Below are positions 44,436-62,401 of a stretch of DNA of 64,000 nt, in pieces. The notes under the pieces are model-generated. The model saw nothing but the letters and a program-made list of their open reading frames with translations, searched no databases and had not been told where the DNA came from. The position numbers and the translations under genes were made by a program. Where the stretch lies: NCBI GenBank assembly GCA_964492735.1, contig CAZBLE010000002.1, positions 135 through 64,134 of the forward strand, given 5' to 3'. Origin of the DNA: an uncultured Gammaproteobacteria bacterium (GTDB lineage Bacteria > Patescibacteriota > Patescibacteriia > UBA9570 > XYC2-FULL-38-9). The stretch's first letter is position 1, and every line of letters starts with the position of its first letter.

Positions 44436-46193
44436 ATGAGCCTTCTGCTATTATCGTTTCTTGGCGGCATTCTTACAATTCTCAGCCCATGTGTGTTGCC
44501 GTTGTTGCCAGTGATTGTTGGTGGTTCGCTCGCGCAGGCGAATCGTATGCGACCAGTGATTATCACGCTGTCGTTAACAACTTCGTTAGTCTTGTTCACG
44601 TTGTTGCTTAAATTCAGCACAGCCTTTATTGATATTCCGCCGCGTACATGGTCCATTATTTCTGGGTCACTGGTTATCGGACTTGGTATCATCACACTAT
44701 TTCCGCAATTATGGGAGAAATTTTCTGTCGCACTGCGTTTATCGGATAGATCAAATGCAGTGCTGCTCCAGTCAGCAAAAAAACAAACCTGGCTTGGGCC
44801 GGTATTGATTGGATTTTCTCTTGGCCCAGTGTTTTCAAGTTGTAGTCCGACATATGCATTAATTTTAGCAACGGTTTTACCGCAAAGTTTTTTAGTTGGC
44901 TTGGTGAATTTAGCAGCATACGCAGCAGGACTCGCAACAGTGCTGTTATTGATTGCGATATTTGGTCAGCGGTTGGTGCAAAAATTGAAATGGGCAGCAG
45001 ATCCAGAAGGGTGGTTTAAAAAAATACTTGCAGTACTGTTTATTGTTGTTGGGATTGCAATTGTATCGGGAGTTGATAAGGATATTGAAACGCGTTTGGT
45101 TGAAAAAGGCTTTGGCGTTACTGGTATTGAATCTCAATTTGTGCAAAATATTTCACTAGACATGGATGATGCGTCGGGGTATACAAATGCTTCTGAAGTA
45201 GTTCATAAAAAATCGTCGGTTACAATGAATGTGAAATCTCCAAAGCCAGCTCCAGAACTTGCTGGTTTGCAAGAGTGGATGAATAGTAATCCATTAACCC
45301 TAGAACAGCTGAAAGGGAAAGTTGTGCTCGTTGATTTTTGGACATACAGCTGTATCAATTGTATTCGTACATTGCCGGTGTTAAATCAATGGAATGAAAC
45401 CTATGCAAAAGACGGGCTGGTGATCATCGGTGTGCATGCGCCAGAGTTTGCTTTTGAAAAAGAACCAGCGAATGTGAAAGCAGCCATTGAGAAGTATGCG
45501 ATCAAATACCCAGTTGCGCTTGATAATAAGTTTGAGACTTGGCGAGCGTATAATAATCGCTATTGGCCCGCAAAATATTTTATAGATAAAACCGGTGAAT
45601 TGCGCCACACCCATTTTGGAGAAGGGGATTACGAAGAGAGCGAAAAGATTATCCAAGCGTTGCTTGCGGAAGATGGCGGCAGTGTTTCAACTGCAGGGAT
45701 TTCAACTACTGCAATGGAAAATGATCAAAAGCAAGTTGCAAGTCGCAGTCAAACACCGGAAACATATCTTGGTTCTGCGCGATTTGATGATTTTGCAAAT
45801 ACAGATCAATTTACAGATGGTGTTATTGTGCCGTATTCAACACAAAAAATTTCGCAAAATGAATGGACGCTGGGAGGCGATTGGCTAGTTGATGCAGAAA
45901 GTGCAACGGCAAAATCAGATGATGCAACACTGCAACTACGATTTGCTGCAAAGAAGGTTTATGTTGTTGCGCGTGCGGATACCGCTGAACCAAAAATAAT
46001 GAAGGTGTTATTGAATGGTCAGCCGATTTCCGCAGCAGACGCTGGAGCTGATGTTGTTAATGGTGTTGTCACGGTGGATAGTGATCGATTATATGAGATT
46101 ACTAATTTTAGTACGTTTCATTCAGGAGATGTGTTAGAGTTGCAGTCAGAGAGTGATATTTCACTTCATGCATTTACCTTCGGGAATGAATAG
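44436..46193 (+). CDS. Fusion of a CcdA/DsbD-type transmembrane thiol-disulfide transporter with a TlpA/ResA-like periplasmic thioredoxin domain, plus an extra C-terminal domain
   Basis: TM domain with ILSPCVLPLLPVIVGG and a second Cys-containing helix. Redoxin domain VVLVDFWTYSCINCIRTLPVLNQW with a CxxC. ~200 further residues of unknown fold. Confidence 0.7.
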   Translation: MSLLLLSFLGGILTILSPCVLPLLPVIVGGSLAQANRMRPVIITLSLTTSLVLFTLLLKFSTAFIDIPPRTWSIISGSLVIGLGIITLFPQLWEKFSVALRLSDRSNAVLLQSAKKQTWLGPVLIGFSLGPVFSSCSPTYALILATVLPQSFLVGLVNLAAYAAGLATVLLLIAIFGQRLVQKLKWAADPEGWFKKILAVLFIVVGIAIVSGVDKDIETRLVEKGFGVTGIESQFVQNISLDMDDASGYTNASEVVHKKSSVTMNVKSPKPAPELAGLQEWMNSNPLTLEQLKGKVVLVDFWTYSCINCIRTLPVLNQWNETYAKDGLVIIGVHAPEFAFEKEPANVKAAIEKYAIKYPVALDNKFETWRAYNNRYWPAKYFIDKTGELRHTHFGEGDYEESEKIIQALLAEDGGSVSTAGISTTAMENDQKQVASRSQTPETYLGSARFDDFANTDQFTDGVIVPYSTQKISQNEWTLGGDWLVDAESATAKSDDATLQLRFAAKKVYVVARADTAEPKIMKVLLNGQPISAADAGADVVNGVVTVDSDRLYEITNFSTFHSGDVLELQSESDISLHAFTFGNE

Positions 46194-46209
46194 TTTTAAG
46201 TTATAGATA

Positions 46210-46866
46210 TTGTTAAAAATGTTACATCACCGACCAAACGACATTATTAGTGGCTTATTGCATCTCATTGGTTTTGGGTTATCGGTCGCAGCGCTCGTTG
46301 TTCTTGTTGTGTATGCGCAAACCGGCGCGCAAGTGGCGACTGTGACGATTTTTGGGAGTGGGTTGCTCTTATTGTATTTCGCAAGTAGCGCCTATCATTT
46401 ATTTCCACCGCATCGAGCACGCACAAAAGCCATCTTGCGCATTTTTGATCACTTGATGATTTATGTGTTAATCGCCGCGACCTACACGCCTATTTGCATT
46501 GTGGTGATTGGAGGCGGCTGGGGTTGGACGTTGTTTAGTATTGGCTGGGGACTGGCAGTGTTTGGTATTATTTTGACGGCGATTCCGAAGCTCCGTCCGC
46601 CGGTCTGGTTTAGTGTTATGCATTATCTTGCAATGGGCTGGTTGGTGGTTTTCGCACTGCCGGTTGTGATGCAAGTGATTCCCACGGCGTTATTTTTCTG
46701 GCTCGTGCTTGGCGGTGTGTGTTACACGGTTGGGGCAGTTTGTTTCGCGTTCAGCTTTTTTTGGAAACCACGCTGGTTTGGCTGGCATGAAGTATTTCAT
46801 CTGCTCGTTATCGCCGGCAGTTTTTGCCATTTCTGGTTTTTGCTTTCGTATTTGCGTGTGGCGTGA
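46210..46866 (+). CDS. Hemolysin III-family (PAQR/YqfA-like) membrane protein
   Basis: Seven TM helices with SSAYHLFPP...IFDHLMIYVLIAATYTP...HEVFHLLV motifs. Confidence 0.75.
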   Translation: MLKMLHHRPNDIISGLLHLIGFGLSVAALVVLVVYAQTGAQVATVTIFGSGLLLLYFASSAYHLFPPHRARTKAILRIFDHLMIYVLIAATYTPICIVVIGGGWGWTLFSIGWGLAVFGIILTAIPKLRPPVWFSVMHYLAMGWLVVFALPVVMQVIPTALFFWLVLGGVCYTVGAVCFAFSFFWKPRWFGWHEVFHLLVIAGSFCHFWFLLSYLRVA

Positions 46867-46887
46867 TCTATGTAAAATAGTTGAATA

Positions 46888-46915
46888 AAAAAAGATGCGG
46901 AGTGGTCAGGTCCGC
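46888..46915 (-). terminator. Putative rho-independent terminator downstream of the 46938-47423 gene
   Basis: The minus strand reads GCGGAcctgaccacTCCGCatcttttttt. Confidence 0.4.
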
Positions 46916-46937
46916 GATGCTTTACGACATGTGCTGC

Positions 46938-47423
46938 TCAGTTGCTGCTGTAGTTTGGCCCTGCGCCGTAGAGCGTTTTGCCGTTCCGTGTAATCATTAT
47001 GACCTTCTCTTCAGCGATTAACGCTTCCAAGATTTTATCAAAGGGAACTCTTTGTTCACACCGCCCTTTAAGGGCTTGGTAGCTCAGGAGTACGCTTCCT
47101 TGAAGGGACTGCAGAATACGTGCCCGAACTCGGGGATACGTTTTTACGTCAGGGGCATCGACTTCATCTTCCCATGCATGGGTGATGACAGCGCTCACGC
47201 TTATGTCTCTCGGGATCACTGTCTTGTATTGTAAGACAACCCCTCGGCCATTACCGGTGCGCTCGACGCCATCTCTGTCGAGCAAGGCATTCCAAAGCTT
47301 TTGTTGGAGGTGTTCGCTTTGAATACTTAGCAGGGACATAAGGTCTGCCTTCTTTATCCCTGTTGGAACGCTCTCAAGAAGTTGAACAGCCTGGGCGACA
47401 AGATCATTACTGATGATCATCAT
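46938..47423 (-). CDS. Hypothetical 161-aa protein with moderately elevated GC content
   Basis: GGAG-like Shine-Dalgarno before the ATGATG start. No family recognised. Confidence 0.4.
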   Translation of the reverse strand: MMIISNDLVAQAVQLLESVPTGIKKADLMSLLSIQSEHLQQKLWNALLDRDGVERTGNGRGVVLQYKTVIPRDISVSAVITHAWEDEVDAPDVKTYPRVRARILQSLQGSVLLSYQALKGRCEQRVPFDKILEALIAEEKVIMITRNGKTLYGAGPNYSSN

Positions 47424-47502
47424 AATACTCCATGTGTTTTGAGTATTTTATAACACTACGGACTTTTTCAGCTATGGTCAACCCAGAGTATTTTTGTGCT
47501 TG

Positions 47503-47907
47503 CTAGTTAAACGTCACAGAAAAATTATACATGCCCATGGCACAGAGCGCATTGATTTTCGCGCCAGGTTCTTGCGGAGGAATTTCAATGGTCGTTTCAC
47601 CAGATGGTGGCAGCGTGGCTTCATAATCTAAATCCGGAATCCGTAACGCTGATGAACAATCATAGGTTCCATTGGTTTCGACTTTCAGCAGCGTTGGAAT
47701 TCCAGCTTTGGCTTCAGTTTTTAGTGGCGCATATCCACCCTTTGCGCTGATGTCGATGATTTGTTTGCCGTCGACTATCGCCACATTTGATTCTGCCGCA
47801 GTTGTATTTGAATTTGCGTTTTGGTTTTGAGATGTGTTGAATAACAACAGCATGCCGCCAACCGCGAAGATGATGACGAGAATTGCGGAAATAAAATATA
47901 TTTTCAT
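47503..47907 (-). CDS. Membrane-anchored cupredoxin-fold-like protein lacking His (possible Cys/Met Cu(I) site)
   Basis: N-terminal TM, then a beta-rich domain with the spacing EIxAKGGYAP...DCSS...IPDL...CAMGMY, reminiscent of the Cupredoxin_1 family. The protein contains no His at all. Confidence 0.4.
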   Translation of the reverse strand: MKIYFISAILVIIFAVGGMLLLFNTSQNQNANSNTTAAESNVAIVDGKQIIDISAKGGYAPLKTEAKAGIPTLLKVETNGTYDCSSALRIPDLDYEATLPPSGETTIEIPPQEPGAKINALCAMGMYNFSVTFN

Positions 47908-47916
47908 AGATCTATA

Positions 47917-48942
47917 TTAGAATGTAAAGAGCGGTGGAATTAAGCCAATTCCAACAAAGCTGTTGAGAATAGTGAAGACTGCAAACAAAATAACGATAAG
48001 TCCGGCGCTCTTGAAAAAGATTCCAGCCTTGGAATTATTTTGAATACTCAGTGAACTGAAACTGACAAGCGCGAGCACTGGAAATGTACCAAGTGCAAAC
48101 GCGAGCATCGTGAGGCCACCTTCGAGAAAATTTCCCGTTTGCAAAGTCGCAATTTGCATTGATTGGGTGAAGCCGCACGGCAAGAAAAAGGTTGCAATGC
48201 CGACGAGTGCTGGAGTGAACGTGTGATTGAGTTTTGAAACATTGAGCGCATGTTTTGAAAGCCATTTTGGCATGGCTGGCTGCAACCGTTTGGTGAATTC
48301 AAAAACATCCAATAAATTAATTCCAAGAATCAGCATAACAAGACTGACAATGATGCCAAGCACGAATGTTCCAGTTGAGCCAAATTGAAAGACAGCTCCA
48401 ACTGTGCCAATCAGACCGCCGAGCAGAAAAAAGGATACAATCCGACCGATGTGAAATAACAGTTGCGGCCGAATTTTCCCGCCGTCTTTTGCAAACGTCG
48501 CGGACATCGATAGCAGCAAGCCACCAACCACTGCCATACAGGTTGAAACTGATGCAATCAGGCCAATCACAAAGGCTGTGTCATATGTCAGGCTTCCTGT
48601 ATTCACCAGATTTACAATCCCGAGTTTCTGCAACAGAATAAACAGAAAGCCAAAACCAAATGCAATTGGCAAGGCAATAGCAAATTCCTTCCAGTCCACG
48701 GATTTTTTTTGTTTGTGAATCGCGAGGGAATAGCCGTGTTCTGAAATGAGTGGAGTTAATTCAGTGGCGATTTGTTCCAGCGTCATCTCACCAAAATCGC
48801 CAGTGATTTCGACGGTGTGATTCGCAAGATTTGATTTAGCTGCAGTGATTCGCGGATCTTCCGCAAGTTCGTTTTCTGTTAGCACAACACAAGCCGAGCA
48901 GGTCATGCCGTGAACGTGAAGGGTGAAGGTTTTTTGTGACAT
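47917..48942 (-). CDS. Heavy-metal-associated (HMA) domain fused to a DsbD_2/CcdA-like membrane domain
   Basis: N-terminal GMTCSACV metal-binding motif; membrane domain with conserved Cys-containing helices (SVSTCMAVVGG, FFLPCGFTQSM). Confidence 0.65.
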   Translation of the reverse strand: MSQKTFTLHVHGMTCSACVVLTENELAEDPRITAAKSNLANHTVEITGDFGEMTLEQIATELTPLISEHGYSLAIHKQKKSVDWKEFAIALPIAFGFGFLFILLQKLGIVNLVNTGSLTYDTAFVIGLIASVSTCMAVVGGLLLSMSATFAKDGGKIRPQLLFHIGRIVSFFLLGGLIGTVGAVFQFGSTGTFVLGIIVSLVMLILGINLLDVFEFTKRLQPAMPKWLSKHALNVSKLNHTFTPALVGIATFFLPCGFTQSMQIATLQTGNFLEGGLTMLAFALGTFPVLALVSFSSLSIQNNSKAGIFFKSAGLIVILFAVFTILNSFVGIGLIPPLFTF

Positions 48943-48949
48943 ATGTGAA

Positions 48950-58858: not shown

Positions 58859-59893
58859 ATGAATAGAGAAAGACTAGGGCAAAGGCCCGTGGCAGAAACA
58901 TCTCCAGATCAGCAACCCGTTCTTCTGTTTGGTGATCAGCGGGTTGCGTACACAATAGCTGCTGATGGAGATCCTGTCCCAGAAGGGCAGTACGCAATAA
59001 CCGTTGCGGTTGATGATCTTCAAGACCGAGAAGCAATTCAAGCATCTGTTCGCGCTGAATTAGAAAAGCAGTTCTGGTTTTTATCGACTGAATTTACAGG
59101 CGAGACTTTGCATGAATTATTTTCAATACAATTAGCAGATGGCGTTGCGATTCAGTTGTACAACTTTCGAGAAGGTGCTTTGTTGCCTGGTGAGGTGGAA
59201 AAAATTGCAGGGGCTTTGAAAAAATATTATGACGCGCTTCGTGATAAAACCCAGTGGCGAGTCGAGAGCGTGCAAGTGTGCTCAAAAGATGTGCCAAATC
59301 TGTTGAATGGTGAGCCGTATTATGGAATGAGTAATGAAGAGCAGCATCGATTTGAGTTGTATCCCGCGAGCTTCGGCAAAGGGCGATATGACGATGACTT
59401 TGATGTATCTTCTCTTGAAGCGGTTGTATTACATGAGCCAAGTCATGTGAATTTTCAACATGTATGGCAGGCAAATGCAGCGATGTTGGGGTGGGAGATT
59501 GTTGAAGATGTTCTGTTGGAGTTGCCTGGAGGTGAACGGACAATTTGGTATAACGCGACTCCGAAAGACTGTCCGACAGACTATGCTGCGTTGTATCCGT
59601 ATGAAGATATCCCTGAAAGTGTTGCGATGTGGTTTTTAGCGCCAGAGCAATTAAGTGCAACACGCCGAGAGATTGTTGAGCGGTTGTTTACGCGTGATGG
59701 CTTAAGTGAAAACGCCGCACCTCAAGTCACGCACGTGATGCCGCAGCTTCCAACCGCGCCGCATGTGTCTATACGCGTTACACAAAAACAGAATCGCAGG
59801 TCTTTGTTCGGAGTAGTTCAGGCAGTTGCCGCGCCAGAAAAACCAGTAGTGTCTTTGGAGGAATATCGAAAGTTACGTGCGTCTCAAAAATAA
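58859..59893 (+). CDS. Hypothetical 344-aa cytoplasmic protein with an HExxH motif (VVLHEPSHVNFQH) followed by LGWEIVED
   Basis: HExxH plus a downstream Glu-containing block suggests a zincin-like metallopeptidase. No signal peptide. Confidence 0.4.
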   Translation: MNRERLGQRPVAETSPDQQPVLLFGDQRVAYTIAADGDPVPEGQYAITVAVDDLQDREAIQASVRAELEKQFWFLSTEFTGETLHELFSIQLADGVAIQLYNFREGALLPGEVEKIAGALKKYYDALRDKTQWRVESVQVCSKDVPNLLNGEPYYGMSNEEQHRFELYPASFGKGRYDDDFDVSSLEAVVLHEPSHVNFQHVWQANAAMLGWEIVEDVLLELPGGERTIWYNATPKDCPTDYAALYPYEDIPESVAMWFLAPEQLSATRREIVERLFTRDGLSENAAPQVTHVMPQLPTAPHVSIRVTQKQNRRSLFGVVQAVAAPEKPVVSLEEYRKLRASQK

Positions 59894-59913
59894 AAAATAT
59901 GCCGTGGTGTTTT

Positions 59914-61230
59914 TTAAGAAGACTGCTTCCATTGTCCAGAACGTACATAATCAACCCCGCGTTTTATATCTTCTTGTCCGACACGATCTCCAAGTATCAC
60001 TTTTTCTAAACGCTCTAAAAACCCCGCGTCAAATTTACGCGCAATAGCATCTGTCATTTCCTCAAACATTGTGCGCCCAGCAGGCAAGCGGGCTTTGTCA
60101 TGGTCGGATTCAAGTAAAGCGCTGACTGCGAGTTTTGCATCAATCCGTTGATTCGCATCACCTTGTTGATCGGCGCTATTTCCATAAAATACATGCATTG
60201 CAAGCACGCGTTCGAACACATAGGCATATGGCTCTGCCGTAAATAAACCAGCAATCTCTCCTGGTGACATGTCTTTCATTGAAGGAGAACGTGTTTCTTT
60301 CTTCGCAAGAGCAGCAAAATGCTGTCGCGTGAGACGCTCAACCGTTGCTTCGTTGAGCCAACCAAGAAGTGATGGCGTTTCATTCGTATAAGGCGTGCCC
60401 ATGTCGTTGTACTGTCTTTTTTTTGATCGTAACATCAATCCTATGCGCTGAGCTCTTGTGTCCTCATCTCCGGCCGCTGCGTCTTCTGTTTTTTCAGATA
60501 ACGCATGATATAATTCGTGAGTCAGCACAACTTTTAATTTTGTAAAATCTTTTTGTACGTACGCCGCTTTTATTTTTATGAGATGGGAGCTGTCTAAGTA
60601 TTCGCCTAATCCATTCATATCACCTCCGACTTTGTTTGCATCAATTAATTGAACGACAATTCCATTGAGTCGTTCATCTATTTCTTGGTCGGACAATGTA
60701 ATACCTAAATCTTCACGAACCATTTTTACTTCAGTTGTAAAATCAGTAATCAGTCCTTGAAAATATTCCTTTGCTTCCGCTTCATTGAGCTGAATGTTCT
60801 CTAACTGTTTTCGAAAAACGTCTGCTAGTAGTTGATAAGGACGTGGATCTTCAATCGGACTTTGCTCTGTTGTAGGTTTCAGAGTTTTAAAAAGAGCTTC
60901 AAATTCACGAGAGCCATCATCGAGTTGCTGAAATATTTCTGTTATTTTTTGGAGGAGTCCCTGATCTTCAGGTGCGAGCCCGTCTCCGCGGAGCAGTGAC
61001 TCTTTTGTGTTTTTGTAGTTTGCGGGGTCTACGAGTTTTACTGCGAGCATTACAGATTGTAGATCTTCCTGTGTCAGACGATCAACATTCGTAACTAAGC
61101 CTTGTATTCTGTTTTCATATTCAAAGTCAACGTTATTATATCCATCTATTTTTTCCCCATAGATGCCAAATGCACGCGGTTTGTCCGGGTCTGTTTGCGG
61201 TGTTCTTTTCGTATGCTGTTCCATGCCCAT
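59914..61230 (-). CDS. Hypothetical 438-aa protein with an HExxH motif (VVLTHELYHAL) followed by LLGWLNEATVE
   Basis: Convergent with the previous gene. Shares the HExxH...LGWxxE pattern. No signal peptide. Confidence 0.4.
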   Translation of the reverse strand: MGMEQHTKRTPQTDPDKPRAFGIYGEKIDGYNNVDFEYENRIQGLVTNVDRLTQEDLQSVMLAVKLVDPANYKNTKESLLRGDGLAPEDQGLLQKITEIFQQLDDGSREFEALFKTLKPTTEQSPIEDPRPYQLLADVFRKQLENIQLNEAEAKEYFQGLITDFTTEVKMVREDLGITLSDQEIDERLNGIVVQLIDANKVGGDMNGLGEYLDSSHLIKIKAAYVQKDFTKLKVVLTHELYHALSEKTEDAAAGDEDTRAQRIGLMLRSKKRQYNDMGTPYTNETPSLLGWLNEATVERLTRQHFAALAKKETRSPSMKDMSPGEIAGLFTAEPYAYVFERVLAMHVFYGNSADQQGDANQRIDAKLAVSALLESDHDKARLPAGRTMFEEMTDAIARKFDAGFLERLEKVILGDRVGQEDIKRGVDYVRSGQWKQSS

Positions 61231-61273
61231 AATACGAGTGTACTGAAAAGCAGCAAGCCGCGCAATCTGCTGA

Positions 61274-61318
61274 GAAAAAAATCCCCATGAAAGGGGATTT
61301 TAAAATGAGTGTGGACCC
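61274..61318. repeat. Direct repeat copy 2: terminator hairpin plus aaaatgagtgtggacc, which includes an 8-nt match to the tRNA-Ala 3' end
   Basis: AAAAAAATCCCCatgaaaGGGGATTTTaaaatgagTGTGGACC. Confidence 0.7.
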
Positions 61319-61412: not shown

Positions 61413-62039
61413 ATGAAAAAACAATTCATACTTTTTGATTTTGATGGTGTCATTGCAGATACGCTTGATCTTGCATATGAAATTGAATTAAATCTCTGTC
61501 CTCAATTAAAACAAGAGGAATTCAGTCTGCGTTTTAATGGAAATATTAACGACTGGGAAGACCCCATCAATTACCATTCAGATGATTGTGATCATAATGC
61601 AATTGATTTTTGGAGTGAGTTGATTCCACGAATGCTCACTGAAACACAAATTTTTCCTGGCATGCAGAATGTCATTGCTCAACTTGAGCAACACTATACA
61701 CTTATTATTATTTCATCCTCAATCACGAGTCCAATACAGCAGTTTTTAGAAAAACATACATTTGGAAGTCATTTCGATTGGGTGATGGGAAACGATCTCC
61801 ATAAAAGCAAAGTTGAGAAGATAAAAATGGTATTTGATAAATACGACATTACCGCCGAACAGTGCATCTTTATTACGGATACGGTAGGTGATATGAAAGA
61901 AGCTAATAAGATGGACGTACCTGCAATTGCTGTAACTTGGGGATTTCAAAGCCGTGAAATGCTTGAGAAAGGGCCTTACACCCGAATTGTTGATCAACCT
62001 TCGGATATTTTGAAGGCCGTTGCGGAACGTTTTGCTTAA
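61413..62039 (+). CDS. HAD-superfamily hydrolase (phosphatase-like)
   Basis: ILFDFDGVIADT is HAD motif I (DxDG). The C-terminal region carries HAD motifs III/IV (Lys and GD.xxD). Confidence 0.7.
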   Translation: MKKQFILFDFDGVIADTLDLAYEIELNLCPQLKQEEFSLRFNGNINDWEDPINYHSDDCDHNAIDFWSELIPRMLTETQIFPGMQNVIAQLEQHYTLIIISSSITSPIQQFLEKHTFGSHFDWVMGNDLHKSKVEKIKMVFDKYDITAEQCIFITDTVGDMKEANKMDVPAIAVTWGFQSREMLEKGPYTRIVDQPSDILKAVAERFA

Positions 62040-62041
62040 AC

Positions 62042-62082
62042 AAAAATCCCCATGAAAGGGGACTTTAAAATGGTTGTGGACC
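62042..62082. repeat. Direct repeat copy 3 (master copy): terminator hairpin immediately downstream of, and overlapping, the tRNA-Ala 3' end
   Basis: AAAAATCCCCatgaaaGGGGACTTTaaaatggtTGTGGACC; it functions as the tRNA-Ala terminator. Confidence 0.7.
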
Positions 62083-62149
62083 TTACAGGACTCGAACCTG
62101 CCACCTCCTGCGTGCAAAGCAGGCGCTCTACCAGATGAGCTAAAGGCCC
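62077..62149 (-). tRNA. tRNA-Ala (anticodon UGC) with a G3:U70 identity pair; CCA not encoded
   Basis: Reverse complement: GGGCCTTTAGCTCATCTGGTAGAGCGCCTGCTTTGCACGCAGGAGGTGGCAGGTTCGAGTCCTGTAAGGTCCA. The anticodon stem CCTGC/GCAGG closes the loop TTTGCAC. Confidence 0.8.
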
Positions 62150-62173: not shown

Positions 62174-62401
62174 CTATTGGATGAAGATCCAGTCAAGAAT
62201 ATCAACAATCTGTCCGCTCATAATCATAAAAGCGAAGAGAATAAGCAAAACGCCGAGGATTTTATGGAATGTCCAGGTGCCGCCACTGCCAATTTTGTCT
62301 TCTGCCCATTGAATATAGCCAAAATTTTGAATCAGCCATTCAGTTTTGAGAATCTCAAACACTCCGATCGCAATTAACGTAAAACCAAAAAGATATTTCA
62401 T
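62174..62401 (-). CDS. Small two-TM membrane protein (75 aa), hypothetical
   Basis: Two hydrophobic helices. No family recognised. Confidence 0.4.
   Translation of the reverse strand: MKYLFGFTLIAIGVFEILKTEWLIQNFGYIQWAEDKIGSGGTWTFHKILGVLLILFAFMIMSGQIVDILDWIFIQ

Follow-up and report, generated by a model that had tools for sequence, protein, structure and literature searches.

Gluzincins, the closest described counterparts of one of the two proteins considered here (B), include the minigluzincins abylysin, jannalysin and selecase, the peptidase domain of M9 collagenases, anthrax lethal factor (LF) of family M34, and IrrE/ImmA of family M78. Their "glutamate helix" is defined by the motif E-x-x-[AFTSG] (PMC7213743). 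Further points of comparison are Peptidase_Mx (PF15887) and the M34-type (PPEP/lethal factor) motif YPxE(Y/F)FAEA..LYLY. M1 aminopeptidases have the signature HExxH-x18-E, with WLNEGF. A known system of another kind is the tRNA-integrated genomic island, in which direct repeats containing the 3′ end of a tRNA flank DNA that is missing in a relative.

The stretch of DNA analyzed here, hereafter the window, is 64 kb long, belongs to a CPR bacterium and encodes two HExxH proteins side by side. Gene A (58859..59893, plus strand) encodes a protein of 344 aa and gene B (59914..61230, minus strand) one of 438 aa, both delimited by ORF calls. The genes are convergent, with 20 nt separating their stop codons. 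An earlier note on this DNA had given the same outer coordinates, lengths, convergent arrangement and HExxH motifs and had seen no signal peptide in either product, all of which stands. In the reading favored here, to which we assign a probability of about 60%, A and B are separate, soluble zincin-type metallohydrolases, likeliest peptidases, from two small families found mainly in Patescibacteria; they do not form a pair, and B is an insertion.

Conservation of HExxH in the two families

The A family is small and restricted to Patescibacteria, with 16 homologues found; its alignment (A2) holds 17 sequences and reaches down to ~30% identity. B is a near-orphan. Its sole close match, on contig L008, is 100% identical to it, and its eight distant relatives share 19–25% identity with it in the alignment and 24–32% over the matched stretches. 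Homologues of both families are thinly sampled and lie mostly on short metagenomic contigs. A profile search of genome contigs with alignment A2 gave three loci, and a metagenome scan with alignment A1 gave one, a duplicate of locus L018.

The A motif reads HEPSH (residues 192–196; 59432..59446, plus strand), and its H192, E193 and H196 are invariant in the alignment of all 17 family members; it is the presumed source of two zinc ligands and of the catalytic base. The B motif, HELYH (residues 238–242; 60505..60519, minus strand), is placed by both alignment and model, and H238, E239 and H242 are kept in 9/9 sequences at 19–25% identity. HExxH by itself is common, being present in 6 of the 58 long stop-to-stop stretches of the window. 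Because the motif is invariant within each family, A and B are both probably zincin-type metallohydrolases, which agrees with the earlier proposal of two such enzymes from unrecognised families; the HExxH of B also falls on a helix of its model.

We infer metal binding, catalysis, peptidase activity and a cytoplasmic location for A and B. Neither protein has a TM-like segment or a hydrophobic N-terminus: the highest mean Kyte-Doolittle value over 19 residues is 1.09 in A and 0.87 in B, and the neighboring MFS transporters, for scale, reach 2.3–2.8 on the same measure. In the proposed mechanism, Zn2+ would be held by the two HExxH histidines on an active-site helix together with one downstream acidic residue. 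The HExxH Glu would activate a water molecule for cleavage of a peptide bond, and the substrate would be held by the strand just before the helix, RRLELYPA in A and residues 217–221 in B.

Protein B and the gluzincins

The AF2 model of B has an average pLDDT of 59, with a confident core. Strands 192–196, 209–212 and 217–221 come before helix 229–244, which bears HExxH (pLDDT 76–87), and WLNE starts helix 290–309 (pLDDT 81–90). Between the second His and W291 lie 49 residues that include a predicted β-hairpin insert, and long helical regions occupy the N- and C-terminus.

W291-L-N-E294 (60349..60360, minus strand; alignment and model) is invariant in 9/9 members of the B family. S245, G264 and Y337 are likewise kept throughout; the family motif is HExxHxxSG...WLNEAxTE. 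From alignment and model, the presumed third zinc ligand is E294, on a glutamate helix of gluzincin type, and the earlier suggestion that the Glu of LGWLNE serves this purpose in B is credible, as this residue sits within the invariant W-L-N-E. With E294 of WLNE(A)xTE as the downstream ligand, HExxH and the acidic residue would sit on adjacent helices of B, the gluzincin arrangement. The family consensus NEAxTE fits E-x-x-[AFTSG]; the window protein itself reads E-A-T-V.

Like the gluzincins, B has its HExxH on a predicted helix, an invariant Glu, the putative third ligand, opening the next predicted helix and, in the model, a β-sheet before the HExxH helix. It differs from them in its 49-residue gap from His to W291 and its long terminal helical regions, and it matches none of them significantly (Foldseek E 0.3 and PDB profile E 0.5 at best). 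The W-L-N-E of B also recalls the third-ligand motif WLNEG of the M1 aminopeptidases. This is a resemblance of motif only: the spacing from second His to Glu is 51 in B instead of 18, the architecture differs, and no M1 Pfam model matches. A search of the literature for the WLNEA motif found nothing relevant.

Foldseek with the B model gave no significant match to any solved zincin. Its top non-significant PDB matches are nearly all gluzincins, with abylysin (4jiu) first (probability 0.92, E 0.3) and jannalysin, selecase, collagenases G, H and T, anthrax LF and ArdC further in the list. The named matches in BFVD are IrrE-like proteins, PolyVal metallopeptidase, lethal factor, SprT and M48. In sequence searches, where the sub-threshold matches of both proteins are also mostly metallopeptidase models, the best E-values of B are those with SprT-like PF10263 (E 0.052), DUF6782 PF20573 (E 0.063) and IrrE 3dte (E 0.5–1.8), yet against PF10263, PF20573 and M78 IrrE-ImmA it stays below the gathering threshold, and the PDB profile matches are not significant. 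A match of B to 4rzp (E 2e-4) was discarded; 4rzp is an engineered helical protein, aligned to the C-terminal helices of B.

Protein A and its candidate third ligand

L210-G211-W212 (59486..59494, plus strand) is invariant across the A family. In the alignment, the position of the Glu after LGW is occupied by E, Q, H, D, N, K or A, and because the acidic positions following LGW vary in this way they are not a credible site for a metal ligand. Likelier candidates stand ~50 residues past HExxH, in the conserved stretch S-Y-A-x-x-x-P-[DE]-[DE]-D-x-[AP]-[ED]-S-V-[AV]-x-[WYF]-[FL]-[LF]. Here all members share D250, and each has either E or D at position 253 (D250-I-P-E253 in the window protein; 59606..59617, plus strand), in the motif [ED]-[ST]-V-[AV]-x-[WYF]-[FL]-[LF]. 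From family conservation, D250 or E/D253 is the likeliest candidate for the third zinc ligand of A, and in the proposed mechanism the downstream ligand would be one of these two within D-x-x-[ED]-[ST]-V. The overall family motif is HExxH...LGW...ELPGG...D-x-x-[ED]-S-V.

The model of A, built from five sequences, has a mean pLDDT of 52.8, falling to ~35 around HExxH, and contains a separate N-terminal α/β domain of ~140 residues. The model is poor, and the candidate ligands D250 and E/D253 come from conservation. Its Foldseek matches (ribosomal eS7, rmsd ~19) are meaningless.

The sub-threshold matches of A are Peptidase_Mx, HtpX and PPEP, and the only ones of metallopeptidase type fall on the stretch ~50 residues past HExxH, which resembles Peptidase_Mx and the M34-type motif. 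The best A-family score against PF15887 is 15.0 bits (E 0.017; gathering threshold 27 bits), with residues 221–265 of member P0008 aligned to positions 136–180 of the model, still below threshold; PF15887 does not match the window protein. The stretch around D250-E253 also resembles the PPEP sequence YPTEYFAEAASLYLY at the level of motif, without significance. The local alignment to PPEP-2 (6fpc) has a PDB E of 0.84, with a second segment at −0.1 bit, and the order of the PPEP alignment relative to HExxH is not colinear. At the aligned position, Asp replaces Glu in half of the A family, and A differs from both known groups by its extra N-terminal domain of ~140 aa.

Searches for known families

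No model of Pfam, NCBIfam, PHROGs or PADLOC came to or close to its threshold with A, B or any member of their families. Sequence searches of the PDB, run with single sequences and with profiles of the full length or of the core only, reached at best E 0.36, for a de novo designed protein; among metallopeptidases, IrrE scored best (E 0.5). No curated family matches A or B, in line with the earlier observation that neither belongs to a standard peptidase family.

The missing family match can also be read differently, with A, B or both inactive as peptidases, either as pseudo-enzymes or as HExxH hydrolases acting on non-peptide substrates. The alternation of E and D at the putative third ligand of A, its separate 140-residue N-terminal domain and the splitting of one homologue (L018/L020) in two by a frameshift would fit such a reading. 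Against this, the H, E and H of the motif never vary in either family, which argues for retained catalysis, and wherever a weak match carries a functional name, it is that of a metallopeptidase. A lack of peptidase activity is considered unlikely for these proteins. A and B can be annotated as putative zincin/gluzincin-like enzymes of a CPR bacterium with family-specific motifs. Beyond annotation, their significance is small.

Relationship between A and B

The two proteins had been joined in the earlier note by a common HExxH...LGWxxE signature. HExxH and LGW do occur in both, but LGWxxE fits only B (LGWLNE, residue 289): A reads LGWEIVE, i.e., LGWxxxE, so the pattern LGW..E is absent from it. 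The spacing also differs, with 16 residues from second His to W in A and 49 in B. Nor does the signature hold within the families, as the Glu varies in the A family, and the L and G before WLNE vary in the B family.

The occurrence of LGW in both proteins is a chance-level match. The 100-aa stretches after HExxH have six tripeptides in common, against an average of 2.2 in shuffles, and 88% of these shuffles share at least one tripeptide. Compared at full length, A and B have 27 tripeptides in common where 30.7 ± 5.4 are expected. Pairwise BLASTP finds no similarity between the two, and the hhalign alignments (probabilities 16.8% and 26.3%, over 63 and 40 columns) are confined to a generic strand and the HExxH helix, ending at HExxH. 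On these comparisons, A and B belong to different small, uncharacterised families that are not specifically related.

Co-occurrence was scanned with the HMMs of both families over all loci collected by then. A and B are found together only in the window and on the identical contig L008; elsewhere, A loci hold no B relative and B loci no A relative. Neighborhood conservation, proposed earlier as a check, likewise speaks against a pair, since neighbors differ at every locus. Neighbors are unrelated at the more distant A loci and at each of the five B loci, and what follows A is different in every one of four close lineages. In the lineage at 71% identity (L009), the stop codon of A abuts the hairpin, followed by tRNA-Ala with no gene between; at 52% (L001) an acetyltransferase gene follows A before tRNA-Ala; and in the 62% lineage (L021) a convergent glycosyltransferase gene lies downstream. 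A positional link between the families was also considered, as an ApbE/NQR-like block is found at both A locus L012 and B locus L016, and a Na/Ca exchanger at both L012 and B locus L014. It was rejected as a functional link because, with 12 pairs of loci compared and genomes of ~1000 genes, ~1–2 such coincidences are expected, and because the two families never occur at one of these loci together.

These results bear on the possibility that A and B are paralogues forming a two-gene module on an acquired islet, for instance an effector/immunity or defense module or a protease pair associated with a toxin. In its favor, the two neighboring genes converge, their products each have HExxH and no signal peptide, and hhalign weakly aligns strand and HExxH helix. 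Just upstream of A lies a low-GC, TA-like module (57202..58491, minus strand) that encodes a Gp49-like protein, an XRE-HTH protein and a 158-aa protein. The lack of pairwise similarity, the chance-level LGW in a different register, the varying Glu of the A family and the absence of any locus shared between the families all weigh against such a module, as do the four different downstream neighbors. An effector, immunity or defense role, raised earlier, also finds no backing: PADLOC-DB contains no family that matches A or B at E ≤ 1, and tblastn of both against phages and plasmids gave no match.

Nor does A look like islet cargo: its GC (46.5%, against 43.6% for the window) matches the genome, and A stays near tRNA-Ala in three lineages. 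The paralogous module is already largely refuted and has become highly improbable; with it goes a false lead, the supposed paired signature or defense module. A functional interaction of A and B specific to this one genome would be a further alternative to two unpaired enzymes.

A variable slot beside tRNA-Ala

A lies no more than ~2.3 kb from tRNA-Ala in the window, in L009 and in L001, and all its other neighbors differ among these three. In the window, tRNA-Ala(UGC) is found at 62076..62149 (minus strand). Directly 3′ of it is a hairpin, its terminator (62033..62082, minus strand), and an orphan copy of ~50 nt lies between B and the next gene (61268..61317, minus strand). This copy has a 9-bp stem, a 6-nt loop and a minus-strand U-run. 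The two copies, at 88% identity, each include the tRNA-Ala 3′ end, GGTCCAC. Between these hairpin/tRNA-3′-end repeats is a gene for a HAD-family hydrolase (61413..62039, plus strand); relatives lack it in the interval from A to tRNA-Ala. This gene and B look inserted; only the TA-like module, at 34–36% GC, is compositionally foreign, and it was not found next to A or B homologues at other loci.

These observations fit a model in which A would keep its place within ~2.3 kb of tRNA-Ala in the close clade, while B and, separately, the HAD gene would be lineage-specific insertions into a variable slot between A and the tRNA. The junction of the slot would be marked by the duplicated terminator hairpin bearing the tRNA 3′ end. 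As in tRNA-integrated genomic islands, direct repeats with a tRNA 3′ end flank DNA that a relative lacks. The locus departs from such islands in having no integrase, in a repeat that is mostly terminator hairpin with just 7 nt of tRNA, and in inserted units that are single genes; moreover A, which lies inside the outer repeats, is near the tRNA in relatives too.

B could alternatively be the cargo or remnant of a small integrase-less element inserted at the 3′ end of tRNA-Ala, encoding an accessory protease of that element, e.g., an IrrE/ImmA- or ArdC-like regulator or anti-restriction protease, and not a housekeeping enzyme. The ~50-nt direct repeats with GGTCCAC at 61268–61317 and 62033–62082, the third hairpin copy and the state of L009, which has neither B nor HAD at the equivalent place, are consistent with this, as are the weak IrrE- and ArdC-type matches of B and the fact that its sole close match is an identical copy. 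However, the repeats tightly flank HAD and not B alone, and no integrase or recombinase turned up when the ORFs called at 57.2–62.0 kb were compared with Pfam and NCBIfam. B has a genome-typical GC of 42.4% and no phage or plasmid relatives, and its distant relatives sit among housekeeping genes (SerRS/SecA, DNA polymerase III γ/τ, poly(A) polymerase and RNase J) instead of mobile elements. Such an origin of B is considered unlikely.

Still less probable is the combined proposal that A and B represent two new zincin families restricted to Patescibacteria and that B is a single-gene cargo, an accessory protease, brought into a hypervariable slot beside tRNA-Ala by an integrase-independent mechanism that reuses the terminator hairpin and the tRNA 3′ end as its junction. 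If true, it would point to cassette-like gene gain in reduced CPR genomes, and B would be, for instance, regulatory or anti-defense, not housekeeping. The small variable slot beside tRNA-Ala documented here may interest work on gene gain in reduced CPR genomes. The core of the hairpin occurs three times in the 64 kb, where 0.01 occurrences are expected; the third copy (57050..57099, minus strand), downstream of the low-GC module, is the most diverged, at 72% identity.

Two Neighboring HExxH Proteins Without a Common Signature

ORF A (58859..59893, plus strand) encodes a 344-aa protein with HEPSH at residues 192-196, and ORF B (59914..61230, minus strand) a 438-aa protein with HELYH at residues 238-242. 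Both ORFs have exactly the positions given in the earlier note, which had also described the products as free of signal peptides; the genes are convergent, their stop codons 20 nt apart. A 19-residue hydropathy scan bears this out: both proteins lack a hydrophobic N-terminus and any TM-like segment, with peaks of 1.09 (A) and 0.87 (B) compared with 2.3-2.8 in the adjoining MFS transporters. A and B are most likely independent soluble zinc metallohydrolases, probably peptidases, that do not form a conserved pair, a reading with an overall probability of about 0.6. The HExxH motif of each would provide two zinc ligands and the catalytic base, and the third ligand would be E294 for B and, for A, either E/D253 or D250. 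Activity of both as zinc peptidases is rather likely, and it is highly probable that they are neither related nor a conserved pair and have no common signature.

The pair had been proposed as related metallopeptidases with the signature HExxH...LGWxxE. The pattern LGW..E is present in B (LGWLNE) only, whereas A reads LGWEIVE. The tripeptide LGW is the sole element common to both, and its Trp follows the second His by 16 residues in A and by 49 in B. Shuffled 100-aa stretches following HExxH have a mean of 2.2 tripeptides in common, with at least one in 88% of shuffles; the whole proteins have 27 in common, against 30.7 +/- 5.4 expected. BLASTP of A against B returned no alignment better than E = 3.3, and profile-profile comparison of the two families gave probabilities of 16.8% (full-length) and 26.3% (cores alone). 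Both profile alignments are limited to a short strand and the HExxH helix, a context widespread among small zincins. The conclusion is that A and B have no specific relationship; the common ground would at most be the very broad zincin superfamily.

The Family of A

A has 16 homologs at 29-71% identity (alignment A2), from MAGs labeled "Patescibacteria group bacterium", "Candidatus Uhrbacteria" and, in one case, Gammaproteobacteria. The window is Patescibacteria-like, and its partial 16S rRNA gene (1-979, minus strand; model positions 1-1014, cut by the window edge) could serve for taxonomic placement of the organism. Invariant residues in the family are R164, E166, H192, E193, H196, W203, L210-G211-W212, L222-P-G-G225, N232, P239, D250, V255, L265 and R269. 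The suggestion that a Glu of the LGW block supplies the third zinc ligand fails for A: E216, the position originally favored, is E, Q, H, D, N, K or A among family members, and E213 is Glu in 14 of 17 sequences; neither is credible as a metal ligand. Residue 253 is E or D without exception, and together with D250 it lies in the motif D-x-x-[ED]-[ST]-V-[AV]-x-[WYF]-[FL]-[LF].

All functional hints for A are below threshold. In two family members, Peptidase_Mx (PF15887) aligns with the stretch around D250/E253 at 15 bits, short of the cut-off of 27, and the same stretch has a non-significant local match to the PPEP-2 motif YPTEYFAEAASLYLY. That motif presumably harbors the third-ligand Glu, by analogy with M34 peptidases. 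The AF2 model of A (5 sequences; mean pLDDT 52.8, about 35 near HExxH) was unusable, and its Foldseek matches are noise. In the Patescibacteria MAG H41-bin182, the A homolog is split into two overlapping frames (locus L018, 9878-10360 and 10305-10904, spanning 9878-10904; L020 is the same site), hence the 190-aa length of database entry P0017; the split reflects either an assembly error or pseudogenization by frameshift.

The Family and Predicted Fold of B

A word-indexed search with B matched only a 100% identical copy; 8 distant relatives (E 2e-6 to 6e-4; alignment A3) emerged when 1.84 billion representatives were searched exhaustively with phmmer. Invariant residues in the family are H238, E239, H242, S245, G264, W291-L292-N293-E294 and Y337. 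E294 is therefore a plausible third ligand, the part of the earlier proposal that stands, and L289 and G290 of the LGW are variable (RFGW, RFRW, SLNW or RLTW). The AF2 model of B (9 sequences) has a mean pLDDT of 59 with a confident core. It predicts a long helix (residues 130-175), strands at 192-196, 209-212 and 217-221, the HExxH-bearing helix (229-244, pLDDT 76-87), a beta-hairpin insert, and a helix starting with WLNE (290-309, pLDDT 81-90). Gluzincins have an active-site helix and a "glutamate helix" with an E-x-x-[AFTSG] motif (PMC7213743), and the predicted layout of B, an active-site helix followed by the WLNE helix, would be the same. Foldseek of the model against the PDB gave no significant match (best, abylysin 4jiu, E 0.3, prob 0.92); the non-significant list consists mostly of gluzincins, including minigluzincins, collagenases G/H/T, anthrax lethal factor and ArdC. 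Named BFVD matches were IrrE-like, PolyVal metallopeptidase, lethal factor, SprT and M48.

Pfam, NCBIfam, PHROG and PADLOC scans returned no model at threshold for A, B or any family member. A and B would represent two new zincin-superfamily members, each with few known relatives, in a CPR genome. An effector, immunity or defense role, as had been raised, is unsupported: neither protein has a PADLOC match, no phage or plasmid relatives were found, and no partner genes are conserved among the loci compared.

Genomic Neighborhood

The window order is MFS transporter, tRNA-Ser, MFS transporter, a hairpin copy, a low-GC three-gene module (Gp49-like, XRE-HTH, 158-aa protein), A (+), B (-), a second hairpin copy, a HAD hydrolase (61413..62039, +), a third hairpin copy, tRNA-Ala(UGC) (62076..62149, -), a small membrane protein (-) and an fn3 surface protein. 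In the relative L009 (A 71% identical), the A stop codon is followed directly by CAAAATCCCCATGAAAGGGGATTTTAAAATGGTTGTGGACC and then by tRNA-Ala on the opposite strand, with neither B nor HAD between. In L001 (52%) a small membrane protein precedes A, and an acetyltransferase lies between A and tRNA-Ala; in L021 (the 62% lineage) the convergent gene downstream of A is a glycosyltransferase. Neighbors are unrelated and mostly housekeeping at the distant A loci (L002-L007, L012, L017-L019) and at all five B-family loci (L010, L011, L014-L016). When all loci fetched up to that comparison were searched with both HMMs, the window and L008 were the only places where the families co-occur; L008, 2792 nt long and derived from another sample, is 100% identical to the window. 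Three lineages thus have A close to tRNA-Ala, and B fills a variable slot in a lineage-specific way; the A-B pair is not a conserved unit, and the adjacency is an accident of insertion.

The 75-aa small membrane protein (62174-62401, minus) has a 49%-identical homolog in L001 (9695-9985, plus), directly upstream of the A homolog. A, tRNA-Ala and this gene thus stay within about 2-3.5 kb in both, with order and orientation rearranged. The A locus L012 has a three-gene block (unknown, ApbE, NQR/NAD_binding_1; 43-47% identity) in common with the B locus L016, and a Na/Ca exchanger (35%) with the B locus L014, compatible with chance or with residual synteny among small CPR genomes.

The hairpin is a terminator-like element of ~50 nt (57050-57099, 61268-61317 and 62033-62082) with its U-run on the minus strand, a 9-10 bp stem, a 6-nt loop and a fold of -13 to -15 kcal/mol. 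Its 17-nt core (ATCCCCATGAAAGGGGA) does not occur beyond the three copies in 64 kb, where 0.01 matches are expected. tRNA-Ala is followed immediately on its 3' side by the copy at 62033, its terminator. The 88%-identical copy at 61268 bears GGTCCAC, the last bases of tRNA-Ala, with no tRNA present there. These two of the three copies carry GGTCCAC and flank HAD like att sites, which looks like a duplicated junction. The same hairpin lies between A and tRNA-Ala in L009, and the B segment sits between the A stop codon and copy 61268, where L009 is empty. Pfam and NCBIfam scans found no integrase at the A/B/HAD slot, which is regarded as a small hot spot for insertion and rearrangement. GC is 46.5% in A and 42.4% in B, compared with 43.6% for the window; among local genes compared, low GC is limited to the three-gene module and HAD (36.8%).

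Other Features of the Window

The module (57202-58491, minus; 34-36% GC) is an operon of overlapping genes encoding a Gp49/HigB-like protein (PF05973, weak, E 0.004), an XRE-type HTH protein (PF01381, 4e-14; weak RmrA, MqsA and HipB-type matches) and a 158-aa protein with no family match. Its make-up suggests an acquired TA module of the HigBA-like kind plus one additional gene, and it is not beside A homologs at other loci. ARAGORN places tRNA-Ser with anticodon ACT at 55537-55624 (minus; by eye, loop TTACTAA and a long variable arm) and tRNA-Ile with anticodon TAT at 25872-25948 (minus), both anticodons being unusual in bacteria. A copper/redox cluster at 44436-52824 comprises a DsbD-thioredoxin fusion, HlyIII, a cupredoxin, HMA-DsbD_2, a P-type Cu ATPase with an HMA domain and a multicopper oxidase.
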